Positions 33,664 to 38,300 of a stretch of 38,300 nt of DNA are shown one piece after another. The stretch's first letter is position 1, and each line of letters starts with the position of its first letter. Below the pieces are notes generated by a model. That model saw nothing but the letters and a program-made list of their open reading frames with translations. It searched no databases and was not told where the DNA came from. Position numbers and translations under genes: made by a program. The stretch is from the UHGV virus genome UHGV-0186551. The stretch is one strand, 5' to 3'. The stretch is from a virus.

Positions 33664-34129
33664 AATTGCCAATGAATACGCAAAATTGATGGATTCAGAT
33701 TTAGAACCAGAGATGATTGCTGACACAATAGAAGGCATGGAAGGAGAATTTACCGATAAAATAGAGCAACTTCTTTCCGTCATTAAAAATGAATCTGGTT
33801 ATGCCGAACGCCTCAAGGAAGAGGCAAAGTCACTGAATGAGCGAGCCGCAGTAATTCAAAATAAGATTGACAGCATCAAATCATATATAGCGTCATCGCT
33901 TGAAATGGTTGGCAAGAAAAAGATTCGAGCAGGTATTCACCAGGTAACAATCCGCAAACCGTCAGAAACTGTAGAAATCATCGACTCAAGCGCCCTTCCT
34001 CCTGAATACGTTGAGTTTGAAACGACAATTAAAGCCGACAAGTTGGCAATCAAGCACCAACTAAAAGCAGGAATAAATATCCCAGGCGCTCAACTCAAGG
34101 TTGGGAAACCTTCACTTCTTATCAAATAA
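33647..34129 (+). CDS. Gp157-like recombination accessory protein
   Basis: GTG start with GGAGG ribosome-binding site; resembles the Sipho_Gp157 family that commonly accompanies phage recombinases. Confidence 0.6.
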   Translation: MSKLYEIANEYAKLMDSDLEPEMIADTIEGMEGEFTDKIEQLLSVIKNESGYAERLKEEAKSLNERAAVIQNKIDSIKSYIASSLEMVGKKKIRAGIHQVTIRKPSETVEIIDSSALPPEYVEFETTIKADKLAIKHQLKAGINIPGAQLKVGKPSLLIK

Positions 34130-34140
34130 CGGTATCGACT

Positions 34141-34455
34141 ATGAAAAAGACTCCATGGGAGAAATGGGAAGTCGATTTCTTGCGCGAGGTAGCGGCGACA
34201 ATGCCAGTTGAAGTTATCGCAGAAAAACTGGAAAGGACTGAAAAAGCAGTAATGGCGAAAGCAACAAGGATTGGAGCTGACATTGTTAGCCGACTTCGTG
34301 GAAGACGCTGGACAAGAGCCGAAGTATCACTTTTCGGTAAGTTCTCCGCAGAAGAAATAGCAATTGCAACCTGCCGCTCAATTTATTCAGTAAGAGCTAT
34401 GCGATACAAGCTAAAAAAACTCGATGAAGAAAGAGCAGGCATACAAATAAATTAA
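34141..34455 (+). CDS. Hypothetical protein, 104 aa, two internal Trp-containing repeats (possible DNA-binding)
   Basis: ORF track; repeat pattern seen in translation. Confidence 0.6.
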   Translation: MKKTPWEKWEVDFLREVAATMPVEVIAEKLERTEKAVMAKATRIGADIVSRLRGRRWTRAEVSLFGKFSAEEIAIATCRSIYSVRAMRYKLKKLDEERAGIQIN

Positions 34456-34471
34456 CATGGAGTAATTAACA

Positions 34472-34753
34472 ATGAAGCTAAACATCGACCTAGGAAAATA
34501 CGTTATTACCGGAACCAAACACGATCTGATTCTTAGCGAAAGAGGAATTATCAAAGAAGGCGAGAATGCAGGGAAAGAAACACTAAGTCGTATCGGTTAT
34601 TACAGCAAGTTTGAGCATCTGGTTAAAGAGTTATGCAACCGTGAAATCCTGTTATCTCAGGCGCAGACGCTACAGGATATTCAGCAGCATATCGAGACTT
34701 TAGGTATGTCACTTAGCATGGCTATTGACCAGTTCGTGGAGAGTAAATCATGA
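34472..34753 (+). CDS. Hypothetical protein, 93 aa
   Basis: ORF track. Confidence 0.55.
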
Positions 34754-34917
34754 GAGGACTTACATACAATCCCGGCATTCTTCCGGCAGAAATGATTATT
34801 CGTCAACGCGTAAAGCCAATGCCATCGAGAGAGGAATTGCTTAAGCGAAATTCTTTTCTGTCAGTGAATCAAAACAAATATCTGAATGCGATGTGGCGCA
34901 AAGGAGGCAACCAGTGA
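34750..34917 (+). CDS. Hypothetical protein, 55 aa
   Basis: Hand-translated; ATG overlaps upstream stop by 4 nt. Confidence 0.4.
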
Positions 34918-35018
34918 GAAAGATTGGCTATCAGGCACTACGTGAGGCGGCAGAGCAGGCAATGCATGACGACTGGTGATTTGATGCGGACCTTTTCCAT
35001 GAGCTGGCAACACCATCG

Positions 35019-35471
35019 ATGGTGCTGGCACTACTGGATGAACGGGAAAGAAACCAGCAATACGTCAAACGCCGCGACCAGGAGAACGAGGAAATTGCGC
35101 TAACGGTAGGGAAGCTGCGCGTTGAGCTTGAAGCAGTAAAATCAAAACTCAACGAGCAGCGTGAATATTACGAGGGAGTAATCGCGTATGGGGGTAAGCG
35201 CATAGCAGAACTGGTAGCCGAACTCGTAAGCCAGACTTACAAGTTGAATGAGATGTCGGGCAACTCTCCGGTAACTCCGTCTGTCTGGATGAGCTGTAGT
35301 GAGCGAATGCCGGACGACGCGCAGTGGTGCGTAGTTGAAGCCGCAGACGGGTATTACGTGCAATGCTGGTCTGAAGGTCAAGGATGGCTTGGAGATGACA
35401 TCAGCCTACGTAATTGCGATGTAATCAGATGGATGACGATTCCTGAACCGCCGGAGCAGGATGGTGAATAA
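35019..35471 (+). CDS. DUF551-domain protein (coiled-coil N-terminus, DUF551-like C-terminus)
   Basis: C-terminal pattern W..V.A.DGYY..C..........VIRWMTIPEPP typical of DUF551. Confidence 0.7.
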   Translation: MVLALLDERERNQQYVKRRDQENEEIALTVGKLRVELEAVKSKLNEQREYYEGVIAYGGKRIAELVAELVSQTYKLNEMSGNSPVTPSVWMSCSERMPDDAQWCVVEAADGYYVQCWSEGQGWLGDDISLRNCDVIRWMTIPEPPEQDGE

Positions 35472-35557
35472 TGCCGCCAGTTAAAGTTGTGATTATCACT
35501 TTGGTGATGATAGTGATTGCGAGAATCATGTCTGGTGAAGTTTGGTGGATATGGTAA
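35471..35557 (+). CDS. Possible 28-aa hydrophobic peptide (MPPVKVVIITLVMIVIARIMSGEVWWIW)
   Basis: ATG overlaps DUF551 stop (TAATG); single predicted transmembrane helix; hand-translated. Confidence 0.3.
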   Translation: MPPVKVVIITLVMIVIARIMSGEVWWIW

Positions 35558-35590
35558 TGGCTAAGGCAGCAGCAGAGCGCAACTAACAAT

Positions 35591-35646
35591 CCTCGCACTC
35601 GCGGGGATTTCTTTTATCTGAACTCGCTACGGCGAGTTTTGTTTTA
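35591..35646 (+). terminator. Tandem hairpins with T-runs upstream of orf55/xis
   Basis: cctcgcactcgcgggg + atttctttt and aactcgctacggcgagtt + ttgtttt. Confidence 0.5.
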
Positions 35647-35658
35647 TGGAGATGATAA

Positions 35659-35826
35659 ATGCACTTCCGAGTCACAGGTGAATGGAATGGAGAACCATTC
35701 AACAGAGTTATCGAAGCAGAGAACATCAACGACTGCTATGACCACTGGATGATATGGGCGCAGATAGCACATGCAGACGTAACCAATATTTGTATTGAAG
35801 AACTGAAAGAACACCAAGCCGCCTGA
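35659..35826 (+). CDS. Lambda orf55-like hypothetical protein
   Basis: 55 aa hand-translated (MHFRVTGEWNGEPF...); lies upstream of xis as in lambda. Confidence 0.55.
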   Translation: MHFRVTGEWNGEPFNRVIEAENINDCYDHWMIWAQIAHADVTNICIEELKEHQAA

Positions 35827-35865
35827 TGGCGGTTTTTTCTTGCGTGTAATTGCGGAGACTTTGCG

Positions 35866-36084
35866 ATGTACTTGACACTTCAGGAGTGGAACGCACGCCA
35901 GCGACGCCCAAGAAGCCTTGAAACAGTTCGTCGATGGGTACGCGAGTGCAGGATATTCCCTCCTCCTGTTAAGGACGGAAGAGAGTATTTGTTCCACGAA
36001 TCAGCGGTAAAGGTTGACTTAAATCGACCAGTAACAGGTAGCCTTTTGAAGAGGATCAGAAATGGGAAGAAGGCGAAGTCATGA
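35866..36084 (+). CDS. xis: Excisionase Xis
   Basis: 72 aa, MYLTLQEWNARQRRPRSLETVRRWVRECRIFPPPVKDGREYLFHESAVKVDLNRPVTG.LLKRIRNGKKAKS as in lambda Xis. Confidence 0.95.
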   Translation: MYLTLQEWNARQRRPRSLETVRRWVRECRIFPPPVKDGREYLFHESAVKVDLNRPVTGSLLKRIRNGKKAKS

Positions 36085-37132
36085 GCGCCGGGATTTACCC
36101 CCTAATCTTTATATAAGAAACAATGGATATTACTGCTACAGGGACCCAAGAACGGGTAAAGAGTTTGGATTAGGCCGAGACAGGAGGATAGCAATCACTG
36201 AAGCAATACAGGCCAACATTGAGTTATTTTCAGGACACAAACACAAGCCTCTGACAGCGAGAATCAACAGTGATAATTCTGTTACGTTACATTCATGGCT
36301 TGATCGCTACGAAAAAATCCTCGCCAGCAGAGGAATCAAGCAGAAGACACTTATAAATTACATGAGCAAAATTAAAGCAATAAGGAGGGGTCTGCCTGAT
36401 GCTCCACTTGAAGACATCACCACAAAAGAAATTGCGGCAATGCTCAATGGATACATAGACGAGGGCAAGGCGGCATCAGCCAAGTTAATCAGATCAACAC
36501 TGAGCGATGCATTCCGAGAGGCAATAGCTGAAGGCCATATAACAACAAACCCGGTCGCTGCCACTCGCGCAGCAAAATCAGAGGTAAGGAGATCAAGGCT
36601 TACGGCTGACGAATACCTGAAAATTTATCAAGCAGCAGAATCATCACCATGTTGGTTAAGACTTGCAATGGAACTGGCTGTTGTTACCGGGCAGCGAGTT
36701 GGTGATTTATGCGAAATGAAGTGGTCTGATATCGTAGATGGATATCTTTATGTCGAGCAAAGCAAAACAGGCGTAAAAATTGCCATCCCTACAACATTGC
36801 ATGTTGATGCTCTCGGGATATCAATGAAGGAAACACTTGATAAATGCAAAGAGATTCTTGGCGGAGAAACCATAATTGCATCTACTCGTCGTGAACCGCT
36901 TTCATCCGGCACAGTATCAAGGTATTTTATGCGCGCACGAAAAGCATCAGGTCTTTCCTTCGAAGGGGATCCGCCTACCTTTCACGAGTTGCGCAGTTTG
37001 TCTGCAAGACTCTATGAGAAGCAGATAAGCGATAAATTTGCTCAACATCTTCTCGGGCATAAGTCGGACACCATGGCATCACAGTATCGTGATGACAGAG
37101 GCAGGGAGTGGGACAAAATTGAAATCAAATAA
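36062..37132 (+). CDS. int: Tyrosine integrase Int
   Basis: 356 aa matching lambda Int as recalled; overlaps xis 3' end as in lambda. Confidence 0.95.
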   Translation: MGRRRSHERRDLPPNLYIRNNGYYCYRDPRTGKEFGLGRDRRIAITEAIQANIELFSGHKHKPLTARINSDNSVTLHSWLDRYEKILASRGIKQKTLINYMSKIKAIRRGLPDAPLEDITTKEIAAMLNGYIDEGKAASAKLIRSTLSDAFREAIAEGHITTNPVAATRAAKSEVRRSRLTADEYLKIYQAAESSPCWLRLAMELAVVTGQRVGDLCEMKWSDIVDGYLYVEQSKTGVKIAIPTTLHVDALGISMKETLDKCKEILGGETIIASTRREPLSSGTVSRYFMRARKASGLSFEGDPPTFHELRSLSARLYEKQISDKFAQHLLGHKSDTMASQYRDDRGREWDKIEIK

Positions 37133-37205
37133 TGATTTTATTTTGACTGATAGTGACCTGTTCGTTGCAACAAATTGATAAGCAATGCTTTTTTATAATG
37201 CCAAC
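37133..37205. other. attL P'-arm
   Basis: Sequence between int stop and core recalls the lambda P' arm in reverse complement (not aligned). Confidence 0.7.
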
Positions 37206-37220
37206 TTAGTATAAAAAAGC
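37206..37220. repeat. att core (attL copy), ttagtataaaaaagc
   Basis: Reverse complement of the lambda 15-bp core; 37207..37220 repeats positions 1..14. Confidence 0.9.
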
Positions 37221-37266
37221 AGGCTTCAACGGATTCATTTTTCTATTTCATAGCCCGGAGCAACCT

Positions 37267-38300
37267 GTGAACACATTTTCAGTTTCCCGTCTGGCGCTGG
37301 CATTGGCTTTTGGCGTGACGCTGACCGCCTGTAGCTCAACACCGCCCGATCAACGTCCTTCTGATCAAACCGCGCCTGGTACCTCTTCTCGCCCGATTCT
37401 GTCGGCAAAAGAAGCGCAGAATTTCGATGCTCAACACTATTTTGCATCCCTGACACCAGGTGCTGCAGCGTGGAATCCTTCCCCGATTACCCTGCCTGCA
37501 CAACCTGACTTTGTTGTCGGCCCGGCGGGTACTCAAGGTGTAACGCATACCACGATTCAGGCGGCGGTAGATGCGGCAATTATCAAGCGTACCAACAAGC
37601 GCCAGTATATTGCCGTGATGCCTGGTGAGTATCAGGGAACGGTGTATGTCCCTGCCGCTCCGGGTGGAATTACTCTGTACGGTACAGGTGAAAAACCGAT
37701 TGATGTGAAAATTGGGCTTTCCCTTGATGGGGGCATGAGCCCAGCCGACTGGCGTCACGACGTCAACCCACGCGGCAAATATATGCCGGGTAAACCAGCG
37801 TGGTATATGTACGATAGCTGCCAGAGCAAACGCAGCGACAGCATTGGCGTGCTCTGTTCTGCGGTCTTCTGGTCACAAAACAATGGCCTGCAACTGCAAA
37901 ACCTGACCATCGAAAACACACTGGGCGATAGCGTAGATGCGGGTAACCATCCGGCGGTGGCACTGCGTACTGATGGCGACAAAGTGCAGATCAATAACGT
38001 CAATATTCTCGGTCGCCAGAATACCTTCTTTGTCACCAACAGCGGTGTGCAAAACCGTCTGGAAAGCAACCGTCAGCCGCGTACCCTGGTGACTAACAGC
38101 TACATTGAAGGGGATGTGGATATCGTTTCTGGTCGCGGCGCAGTGGTGTTCGATAACACCGAATTCCGCGTGGTGAACTCCCGTACCCAGCAAGAAGCGT
38201 ATGTGTTTGCACCGGCTACGCTGTCCAACATTTACTACGGTTTCCTCGCCGTAAACAGCCGTTTCAATGCTTCCGGGGATGGCGTGGCGCAACTGGGCCG
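37267..38300 (+). CDS. ybhC: Host gene ybhC (putative pectinesterase-family outer-membrane lipoprotein), 3'-truncated by window end
   Basis: GTG start with GGAG ribosome-binding site; lipoprotein signal ...LTACSS; open frame to window end; not in ORF track because it lacks a stop. Confidence 0.8.
   Translation, partial: MNTFSVSRLALALAFGVTLTACSSTPPDQRPSDQTAPGTSSRPILSAKEAQNFDAQHYFASLTPGAAAWNPSPITLPAQPDFVVGPAGTQGVTHTTIQAAVDAAIIKRTNKRQYIAVMPGEYQGTVYVPAAPGGITLYGTGEKPIDVKIGLSLDGGMSPADWRHDVNPRGKYMPGKPAWYMYDSCQSKRSDSIGVLCSAVFWSQNNGLQLQNLTIENTLGDSVDAGNHPAVALRTDGDKVQINNVNILGRQNTFFVTNSGVQNRLESNRQPRTLVTNSYIEGDVDIVSGRGAVVFDNTEFRVVNSRTQQEAYVFAPATLSNIYYGFLAVNSRFNASGDGVAQLG

Follow-up and report, generated by a model that had tools for sequence, protein, structure and literature searches.

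A conserved 28-codon gene for a predicted single-pass membrane peptide in the lambdoid prophage exo-xis region

From the comparison of divergent relatives we conclude that a small ORF at positions 35471-35557 (+ strand) of the window, i.e. of the whole 38,300-nt stretch of viral DNA analysed here, is a real protein-coding gene. It comprises 28 codons and encodes the hydrophobic peptide MPPVKVVIITLVMIVIARIMSGEVWWIW. The best explanation, to which we assign a probability of roughly 70%, is a genuine gene for an early-expressed single-pass inner-membrane peptide that would act through helix-helix contacts in a regulator-like manner. The 28-aa peptides are a new family of small phage/bacterial membrane protein, not a new kind of system. 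They are encoded by lambdoid and P22-like prophages residing in Enterobacteriaceae, Shiga-toxin phages among them.

Position and composition of the small ORF

The ATG of the small ORF (35471-35473) has one base in common with the TAA (35469-35471) of the upstream Ea22/DUF551 frame (TAATG), and its own stop codon is the TAA at 35555-35557. The initial annotation had described a 28-aa hydrophobic ORF with its ATG over the stop of a DUF551 gene, and both the ORF list and Pfam agree with this description. In isolation, the small ORF is not significant versus chance. According to the ORF list, the 4.8-kb stretch around it contains 72 ORFs of at least 20 aa, and with a GRAVY of 1.56 the peptide ranks fifth by hydrophobicity among the 193 ATG-initiated ORFs of 20-40 aa in the window. 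Since the ORF is unremarkable by size and hydrophobicity, and its Shine-Dalgarno (SD) sequence is favourable without being exceptional, the verdict rests on comparative data.

Within the family, GRAVY ranges from 1.39 to 1.80. Lys5 is the sole N-terminal charge and Trp28 is invariant. Position 18 in the middle of the helix is always polar, either Arg or Gln, and co-varies with Ala or Cys at position 17, and small residues and Gly cluster at positions 21-26. The composition fits a single transmembrane helix of <50 aa with nearly uniform hydrophobicity, which is not amphipathic. Conservation along the 28-aa family showed no clear 100° peak of helical periodicity, so the interaction face and the mechanism of partner binding can only be inferred.

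At the DNA level, codons 7-10 of the small gene contain a perfect 11-bp palindrome (GTGATTATCAC, 35489-35499), followed by two more GTGAT motifs. The palindrome is present in E. coli-type copies. Its DNA is not conserved in the other clade (GTTGTTATTAC), and it is therefore probably incidental.

Homologues and conservation of the reading frame

Frame conservation in relatives had been named as a check on the ORF, and the outcome is clear: about 40 distinct homologues retain the frame, the 28-codon length, the start and the stop. These homologues stem from prophages of E. coli, from IMG/VR contigs and metagenomes, and from Pseudocitrobacter. They consist of exactly 28 codons, with rare variants of 27 or 31, and share the same ATG, a strong SD sequence and the terminal W-stop; the family consensus is MPPVKVV(I/V)IT…(A/C)(R/Q)…(I/L/V)W. 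When IMG/VR was scanned with the first 17 nt of the ORF, which leaves the remaining 23 codons unconstrained, copies whose 3' two-thirds lie beyond blastn alignment were still 28-aa hydrophobic ORFs ending in (I/V)W-stop. Divergent 28-aa examples are MPPVKVVVITVVMLAICQLVSMTGYGIW, MPPVKVVVITLAMCAICQLIAASGMGIW and MPPVKVVIITLVMMVVARLMTGEMGAIW. Degenerate N-terminal patterns applied to IMG/VR and the metagenomes brought the total to 37 distinct 28-aa peptides encoded by 42 distinct DNA sequences. A 15-nt pattern (GTGGATATGGTAATG) was too unspecific and yielded mostly chance matches. Among the GTDB species representatives, one match to the N-terminal pattern is true (Pseudocitrobacter vendiensis); the other 13 arose by chance, have ORFs of unrelated length and were used as a control.

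In the reverse search, the C-terminal half of clade B alone was used as the anchor. Each of the 28 matches began with an ATG placed exactly 28 codons ahead of the stop, and the N-terminus was MPPVK in each case except for MPQVK (twice) and MPPIK (once); this search added further distinct peptides to the 37. Twelve members representing all clades form a 120-column alignment without a gap. Exceptions to the common length or start are few: 27 aa twice, 31 aa once, and loss of the start in three loci. The ATG or the last codon is lost in loci L006/L014, L021, L029 and L175, as expected for decaying prophages.

Of the two main clades, A (…A-R…GE…) corresponds to the E. coli type. Complete E. coli genomes contain almost no copies of clade B (…C-Q…), and the flanks of clade B resemble phages of Salmonella, Klebsiella, Enterobacter and Citrobacter.

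Translation start signals

A purine-rich SD region (GGAGCAGGATGGTGA, 35453-35467, + strand) lies within the 3' end of the upstream gene and includes AGGA (35458-35461) and GGTGA (35463-35467), the SD-like AGGA being located 9 nt 5' of the ATG. The predicted anti-SD duplex of the window copy has a stability of -7.8 kcal/mol, which is in the top 2.4% of 672 same-strand ATGs (background median -2.2). The family median of -10.0 kcal/mol falls in the top 0.3% of this background. Most relatives have a stronger SD sequence than the window, with GGAGGTGA 5-6 nt 5' of the ATG. A start codon and a ribosome-binding site are thus found at proper spacing, as in a protein-coding gene. The absence of a translation signal had been put forward beforehand as evidence against the ORF; on the contrary, an SD sequence precedes the ATG in the window and, in stronger form, in most relatives.

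Nucleotide conservation is confined to about -25 to +87 relative to the ATG. It stops at the stop codon, and sequences more than about 25 nt 5' of the ATG are unrelated between loci. We also considered a -1 frameshift by which the DUF551 protein would acquire the peptide as its membrane anchor. This was rejected, as in the window a TGA (35465-35467) lies in the peptide frame two codons 5' of the ATG.

Substitution pattern, antisense frame and RNA structure

The substitution analysis was limited to codons 11-28, which lie outside every N-terminal search pattern. Variability is three-periodic, with column entropies of 1.05, 0.60 and 1.35 at the first, second and third codon positions. Pooled pS was 0.65 and pN 0.34 (ratio 0.53), and within the two main clades pN/pS was 0.30 and 0.33; across comparisons pS ranged from 0.53 to 0.65, which is near saturation, and pN from 0.16 to 0.34. 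The other two same-strand frames gave pN/pS values of 0.95-2.5, compared with 0.30-0.53 in the peptide frame. Near-identical E. coli copies differ by about three synonymous and six non-synonymous substitutions, which are too few to be decisive, and the coding-type signal came only from the divergent clades. Purifying selection acts on length, start, stop and hydrophobic character, and it is this conservation across divergent relatives that raises the gene above chance.

The antisense frame that shares its wobble positions with the peptide frame has a pN/pS of 0.37-0.56, as expected for geometric reasons. The ratio alone therefore cannot pick the strand, and the limits of the ORFs decide. In the window, a 57-aa antisense ORF (35425-35598, - strand) covers the whole small gene, and 75 of 80 family sequences keep the equivalent frame open, because A is rare at sense second codon positions. 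Across the family the antisense ORF varies from 11 to 118 aa, with its limits inside unrelated flanking genes and without a conserved start or stop. Its low pN/pS and openness are a by-product of sense composition and shared wobble positions.

A conserved RNA element as the cause of the conservation was ruled out as well. RNAalifold detected no conserved structure in the 12-member alignment (consensus -1.4 kcal/mol, one weakly covarying pair, hence essentially no covariation), and the single-sequence folding z-score of -1.8 in the window is due to the two terminators described below.

Genomic context and mosaic structure

The small gene is part of a rightward (+ strand) early operon that ends in xis-int and corresponds to the lambda pL/exo-xis region. 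The order is recT, Gp157-family, DUF5405, DUF2737, Ea22/DUF551, small ORF, tL4, orf55, t'I, xis, lambda-type int and ybhC. In locus L168, the small gene stands last in the nin region and is closely followed by terS and terL; the exo-xis and nin locations both belong to early operons.

The Ea22-like/DUF551 ORF immediately upstream (35019-35471, + strand; Pfam Ead_Ea22 E 3.5e-17, DUF551 E 3.7e-7) ends with …PEPPEQDGE*. A frame starting at GTG 34914, over the stop of the DUF2737 gene, reads …EAAEQAMHDDW up to a TGA at 34977-34979 and then continues in the same frame (FDADLFHELATPSMVLALL…), so that 35019-35471 probably represents the 3' portion of a gene with its original start at GTG 34914 that has been disrupted. 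RefSeq lists a partial ead/Ea22-like pseudogene and a 54-aa hypothetical protein at this locus. As the upstream gene appears to be disrupted, coupling of the small ORF to upstream translation may be weakened in the window prophage.

Nearly all members of the family overlap the upstream stop with their ATG, as TGATG or TAATG. The proteins encoded upstream, which include several DUF551 architectures and zinc-ribbon proteins among others, are otherwise unrelated and have only the last eight or so residues in common, either …PEPPEQDGE* or …AAPQQEVK* (window 35440-35470, L157, L161, L163, L175 and L177). The codons of this tail encode the SD sequence of the small gene, which means that the initiation region moves with the small gene in mosaic recombination. 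That the tail is shared by unrelated upstream proteins places the recombination joint of the module inside the upstream coding sequence.

On the other side, the stop of the small gene overlaps the ATG (TAATG) of a nine-codon remnant, MAKAAAERN* (35557-35586, + strand). The full-length downstream gene, present in loci L012, L017, L022, L045 and L168, encodes a protein of 112-113 aa that matches phrog_536 'transcriptional regulator' (E 6e-34). In the window, as in most copies from E. coli, only eight shared codons of the 112-aa gene are left, joined to the tL4-orf55 module. The mosaic joint lies at about 35582/35583, and for many phages the shared sequence begins only at 35584 and extends rightwards. 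Since the remnant and the mosaic joint are common to most E. coli copies, the 'spacer' separating the small ORF from the terminators is conserved. Downstream genes at other loci, as in the ancestral arrangements, likewise start over the stop of the small gene and encode the 112-113-aa phrog_536 protein, a 95-aa or a 91-aa protein; relatives of the 95-aa protein in deposited phages are annotated as ASCH-domain or RNA-binding. In the window, the small gene is intact while its neighbours have decayed, as shown by the upstream nonsense codon and the downstream truncation.

Two terminator-like hairpins with T tracts follow the ORF, in line with the tandem terminators noted earlier. Terminator 1 (35588-35618, hairpin 35588-35609, + strand) has a 9-bp stem and aligns to 't-L4' of the phage 434 record M60848. 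Terminator 2 (35620-35648, hairpin 35620-35639, + strand) has an 8-bp stem, lies directly 5' of orf55 and is conserved in phages 434, E212 and 1717. Both were found by the scan and by MFE folding; the scan returned five terminator-like sites in 1.5 kb versus 1.1 expected. The hairpin before xis (35816-35835) matches t'-I of M60848.

Distribution and annotation status

Using blastn, the block 35451-35584 was found in 228 of 5,426 complete E. coli genomes, and also in the isolated phages E212 and EC.P3, the Stx2 phages 1717 and 2851, as well as the related Stx2a_F349, WGPS4 and WGPS8. A 161-nt query around the ORF was 100% identical to E. coli WP3-W18-ESBL-08. In E. coli and phages the block follows DUF551, ead/Ea22-like or dATP/dGTP pyrophosphohydrolase-domain genes.

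None of the GenBank/RefSeq records inspected carried an annotation of the small ORF, and an exact look-up of five peptide variants in a collection of 15 billion proteins gave no hit, which bears out the expectation of the initial annotation that such an ORF would normally be missed. Common gene callers apply length cut-offs near 30 codons, and this is probably why the peptides are absent from the protein collection. Profile and HMM searches of Pfam, NCBIfam, PHROGs, PADLOC and PDB returned sub-threshold noise only; in Pfam, NCBIfam and PADLOC the best matches were PsbN (E 0.049) and DUF5359 (E 0.14), both far below the cut-offs.

The peptide string was not found in the literature searched, nor was the peptide found in the supplements of the small-gene study on O157:H7 Sakai, and the search turned up no ribosome-profiling or proteomic data set from a strain with the gene. 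The exo-xis papers searched, including the review PMC8614690, list orf60a, orf61, orf63, orf73, ea22, ea8.5 and orf55 without a membrane peptide. In PMC8614690 the word 'transmembrane' is absent and three uses of 'membrane' are unrelated to a membrane peptide.

A second family of small hydrophobic ORFs

At the same position in other phages we observed a second unannotated hydrophobic family of 27 aa, M(S/T/N)WPEAF…SICRW(G/R). Within the sequence ATGA, the 27-aa ORF starts and a DUF551-type or exo-xis gene stops. The member of phage 933W (MTWPEAFANVGTVMAVVLVVYSICRWR; L302:701-784, corresponding to NC_000924.1 58826-58909 on the minus strand of the record) is encoded just upstream of hokW/sokW. 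Further 27-aa variants are MSWPEAFAIVGVAISIALIIFSICRWG; the family also occurs in loci L285, L266, L289 and L297. The MxWPEAF and MPPVK families have no recognisable sequence similarity, and the 27-aa family is more widespread among deposited phages: tblastn matched 92 phage records, among them numerous Stx1 and Stx2 phages, versus 10 for the MPPVK family.

We further inspected 59 loci encoding close relatives of the DUF551 domain of the window. A hydrophobic ORF is located at the stop of the DUF551 gene in 25 of these loci; 24 overlap the stop, and the one in L245 starts 4 nt after it. The 25 ORFs comprise four of the MPPVK type, 14 of the MxWPEAF type, one 41-aa phrog_5525 member, one of 38 aa and five of 95 aa.

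Proposed role and alternative explanations

According to our proposal, N-antiterminated pL transcripts would give rise to the peptide soon after infection or induction, with initiation of translation occurring both directly and by coupling to the upstream gene. It would then insert into the inner membrane with the Lys5 N-terminus on the cytoplasmic side and the Trp-rich C-terminus facing the periplasm, an orientation (N-in, C-out) suggested by the positive-inside rule. Helix-helix contacts might be made through the conserved Arg/Gln18 and the small Ser/Gly residues at positions 21-26, the partner being a host or phage membrane protein, in the manner of MgrB, AcrZ, PmrR and KdpF, or the peptide itself. 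The outcome could be an effect on host physiology during early phage development.

The strongest competitor, although distinctly less probable than a modulatory role, is a membrane-damaging toxin of the type I kind (Ibs, TisB, DinQ, Hok), which would form oligomers and dissipate the potential of the inner membrane, e.g. so as to slow down the host at an early stage of infection or to serve an abortive or exclusion function. Type I toxins are likewise of this size and have a single hydrophobic helix and short termini (PMC12648545), the GRAVY of the peptide being about 1.6, and in 933W the analogous position, occupied by the different small ORF family, adjoins hokW/sokW. However, we detected no signature of an antitoxin RNA: Rfam gave no match at E<=1 over 34000-38300, and the antisense strand yielded a single, weak promoter-like match (9/12), which is situated in codons that the family does not conserve and has no minus-strand terminator to its left. 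Nor is there a plus-strand promoter-like site in 34700-36200, the gene being translationally coupled inside an operon. The peptide matches no toxin family in Pfam, NCBIfam or PADLOC and is almost uniformly hydrophobic rather than amphipathic. The likeness to small membrane toxins or regulatory peptides noted by the initial annotation is a resemblance in size and hydrophobic helix; the defining type I toxin-antitoxin architecture (own promoter, antisense RNA) and a toxin-family match were sought without success. Because every testable architectural hallmark of type I toxin-antitoxin loci is absent, we favour a modulatory role over a classical toxin.

A further, rather doubtful proposal is that the DUF551 protein and the directly following membrane peptide form a two-part functional module. 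The peptide would in this case tether or couple the soluble DUF551 protein, such as the Ea22 variant found in Stx phages, either to the inner membrane or to a membrane sensor of the host. If so, the module would feed into the lysis-lysogeny/induction decision that controls Shiga-toxin release.

It is improbable that the ORF is a mere translational relay, which would lead ribosomes from the DUF551 gene to the next gene via overlapping stop and start codons while the peptide itself is unimportant. The overlap of the ATG with the upstream stop in nearly all members is what such a relay would look like, as is the overlap of the downstream start with the small ORF stop (TAATG, GTGA, ATGGTGATGG) wherever a downstream gene exists. 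A relay, however, needs an open frame only, whereas amino acid sequence, hydrophobicity and exact length are conserved here with synonymous sites saturated, and the ORF is intact in the common E. coli arrangement in which the downstream gene is deleted. Conservation of peptide sequence and length and survival of the ORF without the downstream gene thus make a pure relay unlikely.

That the ORF arose by chance in a conserved non-coding stretch (3' UTR, regulatory RNA or recombination linker), or that the antisense ORF is the true gene, is very improbable: the window does contain many small ORFs, the region forms a mosaic joint and the antisense frame is mostly open at low pN/pS, but variability is three-periodic without conserved RNA structure, and the antisense ORF has inconstant limits that fall in unrelated flanking genes.

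A phage lysis peptide (holin, antiholin or spanin) was rejected as a candidate, since the gene belongs to an early operon and not to a late lysis cassette with endolysin; the only tblastn match to a spanin/lysis protein had an E value of 7.

Implications

With the gene for the 28-aa peptide, the exo-xis region gains a conserved, previously unannotated gene. Its ribosome-binding site and start lie inside the 3' end of the Ea22/DUF551 gene, so that deletions or tags introduced there will remove the peptide as well, and this loss may confound phenotypes attributed to Ea22-type genes. The family is a clean case of a gene of <30 codons missed by standard pipelines, and the antisense ORF over it is a caution for automated small-ORF calling. 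The recurrence of small hydrophobic ORFs directly after DUF551 genes is a pattern open to test.

Comparison with known systems

In size and as a hydrophobic single helix the peptide is similar to type I toxins (Ibs, ShoB, TisB, DinQ, Ldr, Hok/HokW), for which a prophage location is common (PMC12648545). Unlike type I toxin-antitoxin loci, it is operon-coupled, and no antisense or trans sRNA, own promoter or structured 5' UTR was found; it also has no match to the Hok, Ibs, Ldr, TisB, ShoB, DinQ or Zor families.

With the exo-xis genes of lambda and Stx phages (orf60a, orf61, orf63, orf73, ea22, ea8.5 and orf55) the small gene shares the region and, presumably, pL-driven early expression, and it directly follows a DUF551-type Ea22 variant at the position where lambda has ea8.5. 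The known exo-xis proteins, in contrast to the predicted membrane peptide, are soluble and described.

KdpF (29 aa), PmrR (29 aa), MgtR (30 aa), MgtS (31 aa), CydX (37 aa), MgrB (47 aa) and AcrZ (49 aa) are examples of enterobacterial small regulatory inner-membrane proteins. The peptide resembles this class (PMC12648545) in having <50 aa, one predicted hydrophobic helix and very short termini, and in being missed by standard gene callers. It differs from them in lacking sequence similarity to any curated family, and from host small membrane proteins in being phage-borne and encoded in an early phage operon instead of a host stress regulon. As in these small regulatory proteins, the polar and small residues within the helix could mediate helix-helix contacts.
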